DNA of 32,000 bases, from positions 288,694 through 320,693 of IMG/VR virus record IMGVR_UViG_3300017971_000185; one strand, 5' to 3'. Under the pieces are notes generated by a model. That model ran no database searches. It saw nothing but the letters and a program-made list of their open reading frames with translations, and was not told where the DNA came from. The translations under genes were made by a program, and so were the position numbers. Positions 4,467 to 27,990 of this stretch are shown here, in pieces (the first letter of the stretch is position 1; every line of letters begins with the position of its first letter). The stretch comes from a virus.

Positions 4467-4559
4467 GGGGAAGGAGACAGGAAAGGGAAGGAGGAGAAGG
4501 AGGAGGAGGGGAAGCACCGGAAGAAGCCCAAGCACAAGCAGAAGAGAAGGGGCAACAAG
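4467..4559. repeat. polypurine (GGA/AGG-rich) tract on the plus strand
   Basis: 4479-4514 is 36 nt of uninterrupted purines (aggaaagggaaggaggagaaggaggaggaggggaag). The flanks remain strongly purine-biased. Confidence 0.85.
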
Positions 4560-4698
4560 TGCCAACCTCCCAGACGGCAAGAAGGAGCCTCTACAGAGGG
4601 GCCCGATCACATACACGACTGGGTATCCGCAGCAGTGGAGAGCTATAGCTCGTAGAGTTTTCGGACGGGGCAGATCTGCCTCGTAAATTCCTTCGGGG

Positions 4699-22013: not shown

Positions 22014-22088
22014 CGCGCTGAGAGGGGGTCGAACCCTCGACCTTCCGGGCGAATACCCCGGCTGCTCGGCCTACTGAGCTTCCAGCGC
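22014..22088 (-). tRNA. tRNA-like gene with 9-nt (or atypical 7-nt) anticodon loop; identity undetermined
   Basis: Minus-strand read: GCGCTGG AA GCTC AGTAGGCC GAGC A GCCGG GGTATTCGC CCGGA AGGTC GAGGG TTCGACC CCCTC TCAGCGC G. The acceptor, D and T arms are canonical. The anticodon region is not. Confidence 0.55.
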
Positions 22089-24588: not shown

Positions 24589-25008
24589 ATGAGAGATGCG
24601 TGGGACGTGGAGGGCGAGGAGTCCGTAGCTCTCGTGAAGTGGTGTGACAAGCGGAAGTGCCTCCGAATCGGCGTACCACAAGGCGGCTGCCGAGGAGCTA
24701 GCGGTGCAAACGGGAGAGCAGAAACCCCGATAACGCTCGGGGCCGGCGGCCCGTCTCTACCCGTTTGCGAGGTCGGCTTTGGACGGAGCCGAGGTCAACC
24801 TATCCTCGCTCCAGTATACCCTTGCATTTGCTCAGGGAGTCGTGTAGAAGGTGATCAGAGGTCAACATGTTCATCCTCAGCCGTCGAATATCCAAGCCTG
24901 TCGCCCCCGTTCCCAGCGGTATGGGTGTCGTCGTCGTGCGCTTGGCGTTTGACAGGCGACGGTGAACGCCAGGCTCAAGGACCGCGGAACGGGCGTATAG
25001 GCCCGTAG
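24589..25008 (+). pseudogene. possible degenerate VRR-NUC-like nuclease ORF
   Basis: MRDAWDVEGEESVALVKWCDKRKCLRIGVPQGGCRG...LGAGGPSLPVCEVGFGRSRGQP loosely follows the VRR-NUC pattern (E..q.alv.w......ipNGG.R....G...G.PDl....iEvK...g.ls..Q). It has PSL for PDL and EVG for E-x-K. The tail is S/C/R-rich and runs into the tRNA. Confidence 0.25.
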
Positions 25009-25072
25009 CTCAGTCGGTTAGAGCGTGGGGCTCATAACCCCGTGGTCCTCGGTTCAATCCCGAGCGGGCCTA
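24999..25072 (+). tRNA. tRNA with CAT anticodon (Met or lysidine-dependent Ile2)
   Basis: AGGCCCG TA GCTC AGTCGGTTA GAGC G TGGGG CTCATAA CCCCG TGGTC CTCGG TTCAATC CCGAG CGGGCCT A. Full cloverleaf. No encoded CCA. Confidence 0.85.
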
Positions 25073-25087
25073 CGAAAAGCATTCAAG

Positions 25088-25161
25088 GAGGACGTATCGG
25101 CCCAGTCTCCTAAACTGGCAAGCCGTAATGGATGATGGGGGTTCGAGTCCCTCCGTCCTCA
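25088..25161 (+). tRNA. non-canonical 74-nt tRNA-like element carrying a CCT (Arg) anticodon-type hairpin
   Basis: Perfect acceptor GAGGACG/CGTCCTC plus discriminator A. T arm GGGGG-TTCGAGT-CCCTC. The hairpin CCAGT-CTCCTAA-ACTGG (25102-25118) is displaced toward the 5' end and no D arm sits in the normal place. Confidence 0.4.
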
Positions 25162-25195
25162 CTATACCGAGGTTCAAATCCTGCCGGGGACGCCA
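25162..25195 (+). other. tRNA 3'-half-like fragment (GGTTCAAATCC ... GGGGACG-CCA)
   Basis: T-loop consensus with a poorly paired stem. GGGGACG (25186-25192) is complementary to CGTCCTC (25154-25160) and is followed by CCA. Confidence 0.4.
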
Positions 25196-25204
25196 AGGAG
25201 AAAC

Positions 25205-25477
25205 ATGAAGAGACGCACGTTCATAGGCAGCCTGTTCGCGGCCCTTGGAGCGATCTGCTTCCCTTGGAAGAGACGCAAGCGCAAGAAGTCTCTAGAGGAG
25301 ATCAAGCAGGAGATCCTCATGGAGTACTTTCGTTCTCCTCAAGCACGAGGGAAACTGGCTGTAGGTATGGCTTTCCCTCTCCGAATGCGTCGCAACTATG
25401 CAGAGATTGGCAAGAGGATCTTTCTTGTGGAGGAATTGCCATCGGGCGCTCTCCCCTTCTACGACAGGGAGCCATGA
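25205..25477 (+). CDS. small protein with twin-arginine-like N-terminus (90 aa)
   Basis: AAGGAG lies 4 nt before the ATG. MKRRTFIGSLFAALGAICFPW is followed by KRRKRKK. Confidence 0.55.
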   Translation: MKRRTFIGSLFAALGAICFPWKRRKRKKSLEEIKQEILMEYFRSPQARGKLAVGMAFPLRMRRNYAEIGKRIFLVEELPSGALPFYDREP

Positions 25478-25674
25478 AAGAGCACTGTACCAGACATCTC
25501 CGAAAAGGGATCAAGAAGCCAGCCGTGTACATCCTCGAAGGCGGGCTATGCGAGACTTGTTGGATCGATTGGTGGATCGAAGGACTGCACATCGAGAACC
25601 CGAGAGAACGAGCCAAAGTACGTCGAGAGACAAAAGCTGCCTTAAGGAGAAGACGCAAGCGAAAGGCCGGGTAG
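25474..25674 (+). CDS. small basic Cys-containing protein (66 aa)
   Basis: ATG at 25474 is in an ATGA overlap. MKEHCTRHLRKGIKKPAVYILEGGLCETCW.... The last 10 nt overlap tRNA-Val. Confidence 0.5.
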   Translation: MKEHCTRHLRKGIKKPAVYILEGGLCETCWIDWWIEGLHIENPRERAKVRRETKAALRRRRKRKAG

Positions 25675-25741
25675 CTCAGATGGTTAGAGCACCATCCCGA
25701 CACGGTGGGGGTCCTCGGTTCGATCCCGAGCCCGGTCACCA
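25665..25741 (+). tRNA. tRNA-Val (GAC), CCA encoded, C at position 33
   Basis: GGCCGGG TA GCTC AGATGGTTA GAGC A CCATC CCGACAC GGTGG GGGTC CTCGG TTCGATC CCGAG CCCGGTC A CCA. Confidence 0.8.
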
Positions 25742-25742
25742 C

Positions 25743-25817
25743 GTTCCTGTAGCTCAGCCCGGACAGAGCGTCACGTTCCGAACGTGAGGGGCGTAGGTTC
25801 AAATCCTACCAGGAACG
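25743..25817 (+). tRNA. tRNA-Arg (CCG)
   Basis: GTTCCTG TA GCTC AGCCCGGACA GAGC G TCACG TTCCGAA CGTGA GGGGC GTAGG TTCAAAT CCTAC CAGGAAC G. Starts 1 nt after the CCA of tRNA-Val. Confidence 0.85.
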
Positions 25818-25878
25818 CAAGTATACTTTCTGCCGAAACTCACGTAGACAAGAGCGTGTGGAGACGACACAAACCTCT

Positions 25879-26653: not shown

Positions 26654-26870
26654 AGAAGTGCTACGACAGCGCGTTCAAGGTGCCATCCGCGAGGAGATTC
26701 GGTTGCGCATAGTATGGGAAAATGCGGTAGAGCGTGCCAAGACAGGCGCTCCTGGTGCGCGGCATGCCGAAGAGGACGCTGCGTATGCCCTCGGCCTAGC
26801 TCGCAAACAAGTGAACGAGCAAATGCGGCAGTTGATGGAGCACTGTCGCCGGAGGTACGGATACGGCTAG
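26631..26870 (+). CDS. hypothetical small protein (79 aa from ATG 26631)
   Basis: ORF track 26589..26870. MKQTLTTEEVLRQRVQGAIREEIRLRIVWEN.... Confidence 0.5.
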   Translation: MKQTLTTEEVLRQRVQGAIREEIRLRIVWENAVERAKTGAPGARHAEEDAAYALGLARKQVNEQMRQLMEHCRRRYGYG

Positions 26871-27796
26871 TAGAGGTTTCTGATCTCAGGCGCAGCCGTG
26901 AACAGGCGGCAATGCGTTCCCGGTGTATAGTACCGTAACTGCAAACCGTTGCGAGCTAGTGCATGGTGGACGGGAGGATCCGAGATGCGCGTCGTGTTCT
27001 GCTGACAGGCGAACGTCGTTGTCCACGTTGCGTTGAAGGACGGGATGTACTCGTAAGCGGTTCGCGTCACACGGAAGGCTGAGCGGATGGTCTTGATGAT
27101 TTCGACGTGGTGAGCATCGAGGGGACCGCTCAGGCGGATGCCTCCTGTCTGTGCGGCAAAGATGCCTCTGTCACGCAGTTTCCCGCCAATGGCCGAGAAG
27201 AAGTCCTTGGTGAACAACCGCTCAGAGAGATTGTTGCTGTCGCCCGTGTCATCGTAGGGCTCAGTGAGATCGGAGATGATCACGTTCCAAGTCTGGTTCT
27301 CGTTGAGCACAGTGGACGCGTCGGAGATGCGGACGGTAACGCGCTCGTCCTCGAATGCGCCGTGTGTCCATTCGGGAAAGAGCACCTTGAAGGTCTCGAT
27401 CATGTCTTCATCGATCTCGACCAAGCAGACTTCTTTCACGTCGGGCCACTTGAGCACTTCGCGGAGAGCACAGCCATCGCCGCCACCGAGGATGAGCACA
27501 CGCCCGATGTTCTGGGCCATGACCATGGCCGGATGCACGAGCATGTCGTGGTAGATATACTCGTCACTCTCCGCAACCTGGATGCGCCCGTCTAGAATCA
27601 GAGTGCGTCCGAGGTCCGCGAAGTCTGCTAGCTGGATGAGTTGGTACTCGCTTTGCTTTTCGTAGAGGAGATCGCGGATACCCCACAGAGCGAAGAAGGA
27701 TTCGCTCTCTGCCTCAAGAAACCAGCGCGGCTGTCGAGTCTCCAGCAAGTGCGGCAGAGATTCCAACGGACTAAAGATTCGGTTGGCTGGTATCAC
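26867..27796 (-). CDS. spermidine synthase-like (polyamine aminopropyltransferase fold) protein
   Basis: VLILGGGDGCALREVLKW, VCLVEIDEDMIE and VIISDLTEP match the GGGDGG / (V/I)EID / D-x-x-(D/E)P motifs of the spermidine synthase family. GTG at 27796 is in a GTGA overlap downstream of AAGGAGG. Confidence 0.8.
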   Translation of the reverse strand: MIPANRIFSPLESLPHLLETRQPRWFLEAESESFFALWGIRDLLYEKQSEYQLIQLADFADLGRTLILDGRIQVAESDEYIYHDMLVHPAMVMAQNIGRVLILGGGDGCALREVLKWPDVKEVCLVEIDEDMIETFKVLFPEWTHGAFEDERVTVRISDASTVLNENQTWNVIISDLTEPYDDTGDSNNLSERLFTKDFFSAIGGKLRDRGIFAAQTGGIRLSGPLDAHHVEIIKTIRSAFRVTRTAYEYIPSFNATWTTTFACQQNTTRISDPPVHHALARNGLQLRYYTPGTHCRLFTAAPEIRNLY

Positions 27797-27990
27797 CAAC
27801 GGAGTCCCTCCTTGCGCCGTTGTTCTTGCTCCTCGCAGACGCTCCGAAGCTGGCTCCAATTGCGGATGACGTTGAGATCGTCCAGGGCTTCTTTGGTTTC
27901 CTGGGTCATCGTGGCTTGGAAAGGCAGCCGATCGTCGTTGCGGAAGCTCTCGCTCGCGTAGTTGAAGGTCGTGATGTTTTGCCGTCTCAC
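27793..27990 (-). CDS. hypothetical small protein (65 aa)
   Basis: ORF track (GTG start). Coupled to the downstream spermidine-synthase-like gene. Confidence 0.5.
   Translation of the reverse strand: MRRQNITTFNYASESFRNDDRLPFQATMTQETKEALDDLNVIRNWSQLRSVCEEQEQRRKEGLRW

Follow-up and report, generated by a model that had tools for sequence, protein, structure and literature searches.

To our knowledge, the cloverleaf connectivity of cytoplasmic tRNAs is treated as universal, and the recognised exceptions, all mitochondrial, are tRNAs from which arms have been lost. In permuted and split tRNA genes, such as those of Cyanidioschyzon merolae and Nanoarchaeum, the order of the gene segments differs from that of the mature canonical molecule, and RNA processing restores the normal cloverleaf. 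D-arm-lacking mitochondrial tRNAs, which include mammalian mt-tRNA-Ser(AGY) and nematode mt-tRNAs, are natural and translationally active (PMC7609411). In them a short 5' connector joins the acceptor stem to the anticodon stem, the D stem is lost, usually together with the contact linking the D loop to the T loop, and they work with specialised mitochondrial ribosomes and factors. Allo-tRNAs with 8/4 or 9/3 acceptor/T branches were obtained by genome and metagenome mining, and some of them are found in phages and bacteria (PMC5389517). These tRNAs retain cloverleaf connectivity and have altered stem lengths.

The element described here is located at 25088-25161 of the window, which is the whole 32,000-nt stretch of DNA that was analysed, from a phage with a genome of 497 kb. 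Comparison of its sequence with related genes suggests that it probably encodes a working non-cloverleaf tRNA-Arg(CCU) that reads AGG. The element shares with canonical class I bacterial and phage tRNA-Arg(CCU) (RF00005) a 7-bp acceptor with a discriminator, a 5-bp/7-nt anticodon arm with the loop CUCCUAA, a T arm with a UUCGAnU loop, G18G19 and A20 in a D-loop-type sequence, and an A15.U48 match. It differs from this tRNA in that the D-stem 5' strand and the D loop sit after the anticodon arm, in the would-be variable loop. The segments run in the order acceptor-5', U8-A9-U, D-stem 3' strand, N26, anticodon arm, linker, D-stem 5' strand, D loop, T arm, and acceptor-3', and because of this order the anticodon arm ends up inside the D helix, which the D loop does not close. 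The D-arm-lacking mitochondrial tRNAs are similar in being non-cloverleaf with a short 5' connector; the element, in contrast, keeps all of the D-arm parts in rewired form and would have to suit ordinary bacterial ArgRS, EF-Tu, and ribosomes. Relative to the allo-tRNAs the situation is inverted, with the same stem lengths and altered connectivity, and relative to the permuted tRNA genes the change is an internal transposition and not a circular permutation. The coordinates of the parts are collected in Table 1.

Table 1. Parts of the rewired element and its surroundings (window coordinates), with the corresponding genes of related phages and the Felix O1 member (coordinates of their own records).
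Feature	Position	Strand	Basis or content
Canonical tRNA-Met(CAU), upstream neighbour	24999..25073	+	ARAGORN; Rfam 68.4 bits; R3 72.2 bits
Candidate rewired tRNA-Arg(CCU), block-swapped D arm, 74 nt	25088..25161	+	R2 58.4, R3 31.1, Rfam 35.7 bits
Acceptor 5' strand GAGGACG	25088..25094	+	7/7 pairs with 25154-25160
CGG(C), equivalent of D-stem 3' strand (positions 23-25) and position 26	25098..25101	+	RNAfold MFE, R2 alignment
Anticodon arm CCAGT-CTCCTAA-ACTGG	25102..25118	+	Anticodon CCU 25109-25111, U33, A37
Linker CAAG, equivalents of variable-loop positions 44-46 and position 9	25119..25122	+	
Transposed block: CCG (equivalent of D-stem 5' strand), then D-loop-like UAAUGGAUGAU	25123..25136	+	
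T arm GGGGG-TTCGAGT-CCCTC	25137..25153	+	5/5 pairs, one G.U
Acceptor 3' strand CGTCCTC and discriminator A73	25154..25161	+	Discriminator A at 25161
Junction of 8 nt, CTATACCG, between rewired gene and relic	25162..25169	+	Alignment with relatives
Relic of ancestral canonical tRNA-Arg(CCU)	25170..25195	+	25/26 identical to L156 gene 3' end
ORF of 90 aa, function unknown, synteny anchor	25205..25477	+	
Canonical tRNA-Val(GAC) and tRNA-Arg(CCG), remainder of conserved tRNA cluster	25665..25818	+	
Canonical tRNA-Arg(CCU) slot genes of relatives	L155:3915-3987, L156:719-791, L159:3918-3989		
Felix O1 rewired member	NC_005282:25951-26029		Unannotated

The pairing unique to this layout is formed across the anticodon arm by CGGC (25098-25101) and GCCG (25122-25125). 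The bracketing helix consists of CGG 25098-25100 and CCG 25123-25125, C25101-G25122 is a possible fourth pair, and U25097 and U25126 flank the helix. The D-loop-like TAATGGAT (25126-25133) lies 3' of the anticodon hairpin, and the transposed block supplies A14, A15 (25128), G18 and G19 (25130-25131), A20 (25132), and U48 (25136), so that A15.U48 is an R15.Y48 Levitt-type match. The RNAfold minimum free energy structure is exactly the rewired fold (-28 kcal/mol, z = -2.0), and all of its helices are perfect, with 7/7 pairs in the acceptor, 5/5 in the anticodon stem, 5/5 in the T stem, and 3-4 bp in the rewired helix. The two D-stem strands would still pair in the RNA, now bracketing the anticodon arm, and because of this placement the helix is expected to stack on the anticodon stem as it does in a normal tRNA. 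The GG of the D loop would adjoin the T arm and be able to dock on the T loop.

The topology was evaluated with models that differ in segment order. R2 is a generic model made from 89 unrelated tRNAs that were block-swapped in silico, and it never saw the element; R3 uses the same 89 tRNAs in normal order, and R1 is a single-sequence model of the element. R2 matches the element over its full length with 58.4 bits (E about 9e-18) compared with 31.1 bits for R3, whereas the genuine tRNAs of the window give the reverse, with 23-31 bits for R2 and 49-72 bits for R3. Since R2 reaches this score on a sequence that it had not seen, the arrangement of the element is far from chance. The Rfam tRNA model (RF00005) gives 35.7 bits, which is above its gathering score of 29 and is the weakest above-cut-off Rfam tRNA match in the phage genome; in its alignment the D arm is deleted (4 nt replacing 15) and 15 nt are inserted in the variable region. 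ARAGORN makes no tRNA call on the element. The 7-bp acceptor with discriminator, the 5-bp/7-nt anticodon arm, and the 5-bp T arm with a TTCRANY loop of a canonical tRNA are all present, and no D arm separates the acceptor 5' strand from the anticodon arm. Moving one 12-nt block back in silico yields a canonical cloverleaf, and 10 of 105 boundary variants of this un-swap pass ARAGORN at 115% stringency, while 0 of 200 interior shuffles did as well; at a lowered ARAGORN threshold the comparison is non-discriminating, and stricter thresholds with the shuffle control were used.

A first-pass annotation had listed a tRNA-sized element with perfect acceptor and T arms, an anticodon hairpin starting 7 nt after the acceptor strand, and a following tRNA 3' half, and all of these features are present in the window where it placed them. 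Its description of a rearranged tRNA-Arg(CCU) whose interior is not a cloverleaf agrees with the block-swapped order, with the CCU anticodon, and with the canonical models, which delete the D arm, score no more than 31-36 bits, and recover no normal cloverleaf. The same annotation considered the interior scrambled and perhaps decaying, which does not fit, as a single clean block transposition accounts for the interior, the helices are all intact, and more than 100 phage sequences conserve the same topology with covariation.

The rewired layout occurs in more than 100 distinct phage sequences, which include Salmonella phage Felix O1, Streptomyces phages such as Mildred21 and Jay2Jay, and Vibrio phages (those of Vibrio crassostreae among them) and carry Arg or Ile anticodons. 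A pattern scan returned 122 matches, 115 of which fold correctly and 111 of which are unique; the anticodons of the folding members are 76 Arg, 38 Ile/Met, and 1 other. The search pattern fixed GTAT, GAAA, TA, and the T loop, so the conservation of those bases is by construction. Natural members found with R2 (G025, G042, Mildred21, and Felix O1) score 44-52 bits with this model and 24-26 bits or no score with R3. In G042 three rewired genes (CCU, UCG, and UCU) are arranged in tandem beside a canonical Arg-CCG. Cellular genomes are almost devoid of the class, which is restricted to phages and is large and mostly unannotated there. ARAGORN calls just 2 of the 122 pattern matches, and the Mildred21 member is annotated as 'tRNA-Phe(gaa)', which is a mis-assignment. 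No published description of the class and no biochemical data on it were found in the searched literature. The element is an atypical member that features a 4-nt linker and a shorter D-loop/variable segment, whereas most members have the 5-nt linker NGAAA. The Felix O1 linker (CGUUAACC) also departs from NGAAA, so this linker marks a subfamily and not the class.

Every helix of the family covaries, including the new one. Family pairing is 94.4% of cells compared with 59.6% in shuffles (none of 500 is as high) and at most 47% with slid partners, a contrast that overstates independence because the members share descent. In the bracketing helix pairing reaches 98.4%, and each of the 3 pairs shows double-sided changes. 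This covariation bears on the reading that only the DNA order is rewired, and that cleavage and religation of the RNA restore a canonical tRNA as happens for the permuted and split genes of algae and archaea. Such a repair is highly improbable, although an RNA-ligase-like gene adjoins the same tRNA cluster in relatives. The helix that covaries so strongly exists only in the rewired order, which shows selection on the unprocessed topology, and circularisation cannot undo an internal block transposition; to reverse it, the RNA would have to be cut twice and ligated twice in the right order. The element showed no bulge-helix-bulge or intron-like motif, and the ligase-like gene is absent from its locus.

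The family analogue of the Levitt pair, 15.48, is A.U in 98 members, G.C in 10, and mixed A.C or G.U in 5 (Fisher p about 3e-10, a statistic that overstates independence, given the shared descent of the members). A20 is present in 69 of 69 Arg-type members and U20 in 33 of 34 Ile/Met-type members, and A73 is found in 31 of 31 Ile-type members. A20 is the main ArgRS determinant (PMC9976931), and the element combines its CCU anticodon with A20, C35, U36, and A73. The rewired anticodons also complement the neighbouring canonical tRNA set. Among the 79 loci in which 5 or more canonical tRNAs occur, the anticodon of the rewired gene is duplicated by a canonical tRNA in only 5, and the element itself lies in a phage tRNA cluster where no canonical tRNA duplicates its anticodon.

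The surroundings of the element reveal what preceded it. The upstream tRNA-Met(CAU) is syntenic in the relatives L155, L156, L159, L160, and L162. Four diverged relatives, with flanking ORFs that are 51-64% identical, carry a canonical tRNA-Arg(CCU) in exactly this slot, with the same anticodon and the same presumed job; these genes score 73-75 bits with R3 (73.2 bits for that of L156) and 18 bits with R2. Downstream of the element the window contains GGTTCAAATCC, GGGGACG (25186-25192), and CCA (25193-25195), which the first-pass annotation had taken for a tRNA 3' half. It is indeed a tRNA remnant, which matches the 3' end and CCA of the relatives' canonical gene at 25 of 26 positions and comprises the last 3 nt of the T-stem 5' strand, the T loop, the T-stem 3' strand, the acceptor 3' strand, G73, and the encoded CCA. 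This CCA directly adjoins AAGGAG, the Shine-Dalgarno sequence of the following ORF. The alignments indicate that the rewired gene replaced the 5' two-thirds of a resident canonical tRNA-Arg(CCU) and left the 3' third as a relic, and the replacing gene is a member of the widespread phage family of rewired Arg/Ile tRNAs. The locus is therefore a natural replacement experiment, with a canonical gene in the relatives and a rewired gene plus relic here. Relatives intermediate between this phage and those with the canonical gene were absent from the protein collection, in which only a 100% cluster and clusters at 51-64% were found. The alternative pairing of CGTCCTC with GGGGACG, proposed earlier as a possible RNA signal, exists and is no better than in shuffles (z = -0.3). 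This alternative fold, which draws on the downstream half, arose as a by-product of ancestry and is not detectably favoured.

The tRNA complement of the phage leaves a place for the element. The genome has about 48 tRNA hits, and the 46 tRNAs called by ARAGORN include Arg ACG, CCG, and UCU and lack CCU, which is thus the one Arg anticodon otherwise missing. AGG makes up 9.9% of the Arg codons in long ORFs. The tRNA-Arg(UCU) of the phage could read AGG by wobble, in which case the rewired gene may be dispensable. This possibility is one of several observations that would fit a dead or dying gene, in which a messy recombination left a relic and a divergent, non-functional sequence of the rewired type, even if the family as a whole works. 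The 4-nt-linker subtype had 0 matches on a second viral contig in the pattern scan of the viral collection, no close homologue of the element was found in 76 related phage records, and the adjacent relic with its 8-nt filler suggests an untidy event. In addition, L154, the one available strain variant, differs by 9 SNPs over 6.3 kb, and the single one inside the element (G to A at 25090) changes acceptor pair 3-70 from G-C to an A.C mismatch, which is a hint of relaxed constraint. A dead gene is nevertheless unlikely, since the helices are perfect throughout, U33, A37, A14, G18G19, A20, A15.U48, and A73 are all in place, and the R2 score is the top one among the natural members tested. The element, which carries exactly the Arg anticodon that the phage otherwise lacks, is also identical in at least two independent assemblies, from ENA and JGI, and is thus not an assembly artefact; the phage was recovered in at least 24 contigs, and samples that contain it include ENA ERZ27256778 and JGI 3300029267.

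If the element is a working tRNA, which is the preferred reading, the rewired gene would be co-transcribed with tRNA-Met and the downstream ORF; no terminator or promoter was found between the element and its neighbours. The ends of the transcript would be processed as for any tRNA, and the RNA would fold to an L shape, as argued from textbook tRNA geometry. Host ArgRS would then charge it by way of A20, C35, U36, and A73, and no ArgRS gene was found in the phage genome. The charged tRNA would decode AGG on the host ribosome. The RNA could instead be made and serve as a tRNA-shaped decoy, scaffold, or regulator, for example as bait for a host tRNA-Arg/Ile nuclease or a tRNA-binding protein. 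The family is nearly limited to Arg and Ile, which would fit a specific nuclease or toxin as the targeting agent, its members occur only in phages, and the same genome has many non-decoding tRNA mimics. This role is distinctly unlikely as a replacement for decoding, because a decoy has no need for anticodons that complement the canonical neighbours, and its takeover of a slot held by a canonical tRNA of the same anticodon would be unexpected. The element moreover keeps free 5' and 3' ends in a 7-bp acceptor with a discriminator, as well as U33 and A37 in an anticodon loop of the canonical 7 nt, and the aminoacyl-tRNA synthetase determinants of the family track the anticodon. The roles of decoy and decoder are not mutually exclusive.

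As for the reason for the rewiring, our preferred guess, which is a tentative and somewhat doubtful one, is that the altered core evades a host defence or toxin directed at tRNAs and stays usable in translation, which would be its selective advantage. For the class as a whole, we lean toward the view that phages employ, on ordinary bacterial ribosomes, a second tRNA architecture that is not a cloverleaf, in which the D-stem strands are swapped round the anticodon arm and the L core is built from the same parts. At this locus such a tRNA would have assumed, in situ, the function of a canonical tRNA-Arg(CCU), and the rewiring may help Arg and Ile tRNAs to escape host defences or toxins while they remain substrates of host ArgRS and IleRS. 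If this is true, the L-shaped core is reachable by another topology, and bacterial synthetases, EF-Tu, and ribosomes accept it, with a bearing on tRNA evolution, orthogonal tRNA design, and phage-host conflict over tRNAs. Since standard tRNA finders miss rewired genes and annotators mis-assign them, there are systematic gaps for Arg and Ile in phage tRNA repertoires and in codon-usage analyses. To the family the present locus adds a divergent subtype with a minimal linker, in a 497 kb phage.

Searches for the origin of the element gave the following results. With R1, the phage's own genome yielded no paralogue, and 19 large related records yielded no homologue; two R1 look-alikes were rejected as type II tRNA-Ser and tRNA-Leu aligned out of register, and no donor close to the element was present among the phage's own tRNAs. 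Synteny searches in IMG/VR returned one partial, non-syntenic match for the 90-aa ORF protein, no match for the spermidine synthase, and only near-identical fragments for the structural protein. The exact word of the anticodon hairpin had 0 matches in viral contigs. That of the T arm plus acceptor matched only a normal tRNA(CUA) of another huge phage, and in metagenomes the same 22-mer matched ordinary type II tRNA-Leu(UAA) genes. As these matches are ordinary tRNAs, the outer shell of the element is a common tRNA scaffold that is uninformative on origin.

The same phage genome also contains many tRNA mimics that do not decode, among them Y-RNA-like RNAs of the YrlA type with a CACAAGC hinge (342929-349638 of the phage genome). 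Like the element, they are composed of tRNA-derived modules in a changed segment order. The mimics are circularly permuted and have a stalk. Their hinge lies immediately 5' of the T arm, after which comes an acceptor hairpin that is closed, and with this closed hairpin and stalk no aminoacylation is possible. The element has free paired 5' and 3' ends, a discriminator, and a full anticodon arm, and is without the CACAAGC hinge. Kinship between the two was rejected because the topology differs and only the pentamer CAAGC is common to both.

The 74-nt element at 25088-25161 on the plus strand of the window is likely a working tRNA-Arg(CCU), as read from its sequence and from covariance models. 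Every feature that the first-pass annotation had named (acceptor, anticodon arm, flanking helix, D-loop-like segment, T arm and downstream piece) was found in the window sequence. The minimum free energy structure determined by RNAfold consists of three helices and the acceptor, with -28 kcal/mol and z = -2.0. The Rfam tRNA model matches the element at 35.7 bits (gathering score 29) with the D arm deleted and 15 nt inserted in the variable region, and the element was not called by ARAGORN in the window scan. When tested against the cloverleaf tRNA, it fails the defining position of the D arm.

Features of the element and of the piece downstream of it, read from the window sequence
Feature	Sequence	Position in window
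Acceptor, 5' strand	GAGGACG	25088-25094
Flanking helix	CGGC / GCCG	25098-25101 / 25122-25125
Anticodon arm	CCAGT-CTCCTAA-ACTGG	25102-25118
D-loop-like segment	TAATGGATGAT	25126-25136
T arm	GGGGG-TTCGAGT-CCCTC	25137-25153
Acceptor, 3' strand	CGTCCTC	25154-25160
Discriminator	A	25161
Downstream piece	GGTTCAAATCC...GGGGACG-CCA	3' end at 25195

The interior of the element is a single block transposition. Splitting the element into P (1-8), B (9-34), A (35-46) and S (47-74) and joining the parts as P+A+B+S gives a canonical cloverleaf tRNA-Arg(CCU) that features A14, G18G19, A20, A21, a 5-6 nt variable loop, and a D stem with three Watson-Crick pairs and a U.U at 13-22. Even at 115% stringency, ARAGORN accepts the un-swapped order for 10 of the 105 boundary variants, and 200 control shuffles of the non-hairpin interior gave a mean of 0.13 and a maximum of 7 accepted. 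Two covariance models were trained on 89 class I tRNAs, drawn from this phage as well as from other phage loci, with the element and its orthologue left out; R2 uses these tRNAs swapped in silico and R3 uses the same 89 in normal order. The element scores 58.4 bits with R2 (E ~9e-18, full length) versus 31.1 bits with R3, and R2 is independent of the element in sequence, not in design, because the swap boundaries were chosen from it. The four genuine tRNA genes of the window score 23-31 bits with R2 versus 49-72 bits with R3, and the element is the sole R2 match above 36 bits in the whole 497 kb genome.

R2 also revealed related genes elsewhere. Among 76 further phage records the ordinary-tRNA background reaches at most 39 bits, and there are four outliers that have a common layout and differing helix sequences. 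The first, on an 84 kb contig, has the anticodon UAU and an R2 score of 49.1 bits; R3 does not match it as a unit, giving just a 19-bit fragment that overlaps it in part, and it is missed by ARAGORN. The other three form a tandem array in a phage of 309 kb (R2 46.3, 51.5, and 47.1 bits; R3 24-26 bits; 0/3 called by ARAGORN), carry the anticodons CCU, UCG, and UCU, and adjoin a canonical tRNA-Arg(CCG). A pattern taken from the outliers, GTAT-N22-GAAA-N2-3-TA-N12-18-GTTCGANTC, has at least 122 matches at at least 120 loci in the viral collection, and the conservation of GTAT, GAAA, TA, and the T loop is by construction since the pattern fixes these bases. Among the 122 matches listed, 115 pass an explicit structural parse and 111 sequences are unique; 76 have Arg anticodons (UCU 31, ACG 21, UCG 15, CCU 8, GCG 1), 38 have UAU (20), GAT (15), or CAU (3), and one has UUC. 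The same pattern in cellular genomes (596 Gb) gave 112 matches, of which 31 parse; the parsing matches with visible titles are all on MAG contigs, about half of them in dense tRNA arrays. On these viral versus cellular pattern-scan counts, the family is nearly restricted to phages. Single-base anticodon steps join UCU, UCG, CCU, ACG, UAU, GAU, and CAU, so that common descent with anticodon switching would be sufficient to explain the Arg/Ile restriction. An appealing conjecture for the reason behind it is that such tRNAs may escape a host nuclease or toxin directed at tRNAs.

Members also occur in cultured phages. In Streptomyces phage Mildred21 (MF155946.1, 91367-91442; L297:1495-1570) a member is annotated as 'tRNA-Phe(gaa)', it seems because the UGAAA linker was misread; the actual 5-bp/7-nt arm carries UCG, and the gene scores 43.9 bits with R2 and 32.0 bits with Rfam and is uncalled by ARAGORN. 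Unannotated copies are present in ~40 Streptomyces phages and ~24 Vibrio phages. Salmonella phage Felix O1 (NC_005282.1, 25951-26029; L409) has an unannotated Arg(UCU) member with a longer linker (R2 45.8 bits), and the start annotated for an HNH endonuclease CDS (26003) falls inside this member. An HNH gene adjoins the rewired tRNA in both Mildred21 and Felix O1. No description of the rewired class was found in the literature searched, including the reviews PMC7609411 and PMC5389517.

The covariation alignment (plain MAFFT) holds 116 unique sequences, parse failures included. In it 94.4% of the cells are paired versus 59.6% in shuffles (0/500 reach the observed value, a statistic that overstates independence because the members are related by descent) and 36-47% with slid partners; the covariation score is 0.887 versus at most 0.17 in slid registers. 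The helix that is unique to the rewired order is 98.4% paired and has double-sided changes at 3/3 pairs, with CG 53, GC 33, and AU 27 at one position. Set beside this helix, repair at the RNA level that restores the canonical order is very improbable. Position '15', two positions past the rewired helix, and position '48', before the T stem, are each other's top mutual-information partner and covary like a Levitt pair, with A.U 98, G.C 10, and A.C or G.U 5 (Fisher p ~3e-10, where common descent again overstates independence). In 75 of the 116 members (alignment A4, columns 15 and 31), 27-43 forms no standard pair, being mostly U.U, which leaves a 4-bp anticodon stem; the element is an exception, its stem being paired throughout with C-G at 27-43.

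Position '20', which follows GG, is A in all 69 Arg-type members and U in 33 of the 34 Ile/Met-type ones; all 31 Ile-type members have A as their discriminator, and N37 is A in almost all members. The ArgRS determinants are A20, C35, U/G36, and A/G73, of which A20 is the chief one in E. coli (PMC9976931). Identity elements track the anticodon across the family. Among 79 loci with five or more canonical tRNAs (13.4 on average), just 5 also have a canonical tRNA with the anticodon of the rewired gene, versus ~24 expected by a rough estimate if anticodons were independent. The family is a structured, probably chargeable tRNA. The element keeps the class topology and the bracketing helix CGG/CCG, with a fourth C-G pair possible, and carries A14, A15.U48, G18G19, A20, C35, U36, and A73. 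It departs from the family in its linker, which is just 4 nt long (CAAG), and in a D-loop/variable segment that is shorter; its identity to the family has a median of 57% and a best match of 72%, and a pattern search of the viral collection found this 4-nt linker subtype in no other viral contig.

In the proposed fold, the D helix would be built from strands that bracket the anticodon arm and so would still stack on the anticodon stem, while the D loop would be placed beside the T arm. Three new junctions would result, 9 to 22/23, 43-46 to 10, and 21 to 47-49. In the tRNA core, A9 lies on 12-23, 45 on 10-25, and 21, 46, and 48 around 8-14-15-13-22. The new junctions would therefore link residues that are already neighbours, and an L shape is plausible by analogy with established tRNA structure. 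In contrast to armless mitochondrial-type tRNAs, the rewired class keeps all D-arm parts. It differs from circularly permuted or split tRNA genes in being an internal transposition whose rewired helix itself appears to be under selection, from allo-tRNAs in its normal stem lengths, and from YrlA-like mimics in its open ends, which would make it chargeable in principle.

The element would be charged by the host's ArgRS; an ArgRS gene was not found in the phage by a search in which the control genomes were all positive. The 497 kb virus record (window: bases 288694-320693) has 49 Rfam tRNA matches, of which 48 exceed the family cut-off, and 46 tRNAs called by ARAGORN. The set is close to complete, and its Arg anticodons are ACG, CCG, and UCU, without CCU; in long ORFs, 9.9% of the Arg codons are AGG (7.4 per 1000 codons). 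A decoy or regulator that does not decode is quite unlikely. A canonical tRNA-Met(CAU) ends 14 nt upstream of the element, a 90-aa ORF starts 43 nt downstream, and tRNA-Val(GAC) and tRNA-Arg(CCG) follow ~500 nt further on. No terminator-like or convincing promoter-like site was seen between the element and its neighbour genes.

At least 24 contigs of independent assemblies, e.g. of 527 kb (ENA), 497 kb (JGI), and 33 kb (JGI), encode an identical copy of the downstream ORF's protein, and two of these three do not differ from the window across 6.3 kb. The third, strain variant L154, has 9 SNPs, and the sole one in the element (G->A at 25090) makes acceptor pair 3-70 A.C, which is predicted to weaken the stem. 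That the copy in the window is dead is unlikely, its own acceptor being fully paired. Five contigs of diverged relatives (L155, L156, L159, L160, and L162) have homologues of the downstream ORF with 51-64% identity and of a 229-aa gene upstream with 51-54%, and all show the order tRNA-Met, 1-2 nt, canonical tRNA-Arg(CCU), SD, ORF, and later tRNA-Val and tRNA-Arg(CCG). Their slot genes score 73.2-74.7 bits with R3 and 18 bits with R2.

Window 25170-25195 (AGGTTCAAATCCTGCCGGGGACGCCA) aligns with 25/26 identity to the 3' end and CCA of the L156 gene. The supposed 3'-half ending in CCA is therefore indeed tRNA-derived, a relic of the ancestral canonical tRNA-Arg(CCU), and its CCA is the ancestral encoded CCA, adjoining the Shine-Dalgarno sequence of the ORF. 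The ancestral 5' strand read GTCCTCG, and this is why the relic GGGGACG can pair with CGTCCTC of the rewired gene, the alternative pairing proposed in the first-pass annotation; as a fold it is not energetically distinguished (z = -0.3). The element has little in common with the ancestral gene outside the anticodon loop, so the event is read as a xenologous gene replacement, and in-situ scrambling of the resident gene is disfavoured on the same comparison.

A spermidine/spermine synthase gene (26867-27859, minus strand; PF01564, E = 1.5e-36; PF17284) is kept beside the tRNA cluster in the relatives. Directly after the same cluster there is an RNA-ligase-like gene (weak PF09414 match) in L155:4685-5296, L156:1467-2081, and L157:703-1317, and a class I release-factor gene (PCRF/RF-1) in L159:4678-5313; both are missing at the window's locus.

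Other unusual tRNA-like genes were seen. The gene at 22014-22088 (minus strand) of the window has canonical acceptor, D, and T arms and a 9-nt anticodon loop (ARAGORN Asn(ATT); Rfam 38.3 bits, R3 48.7 bits) and could be an aberrant tRNA, of the frameshift type or some other. In the whole phage record (G000:C1), a 59-nt gene at 369014-369072 (+) (L002:25-83; Rfam 44.2 bits) has acceptor, D, and T arms without an anticodon arm, and its acceptor, AGGGACG/CGUCUCC, resembles that of the element. An otherwise good tRNA (58.8 bits) at 368101-368173 (+) (L006:22-93) has an anticodon loop of 6 nt, for which ARAGORN gives the anticodon 'cc', and could be the Gly(CCC) gene of the phage after a deletion in the loop. 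A cluster of circularly permuted tRNA mimics with a CACAAGC hinge (hinge, T arm, closed acceptor hairpin, D arm) spans 342929-349700 (+), and the mimic at 342933-342993 retains a CAU anticodon arm. At L150:~4480-4572 (Ga0335085_10063175), a 72-nt tRNA-like sequence with a core of unclear layout lies right after a terminator-like hairpin and has its T arm and acceptor 3' strand in common with the element. Another huge phage (IMGVR_UViG_3300037297_000066, 437 kb) has two adjacent CUA tRNAs (amber suppressors; L008:6673-6830), one of 61 bits and the other of 30.5 bits with an odd D arm, and this pair suggests TAG recoding in that phage.
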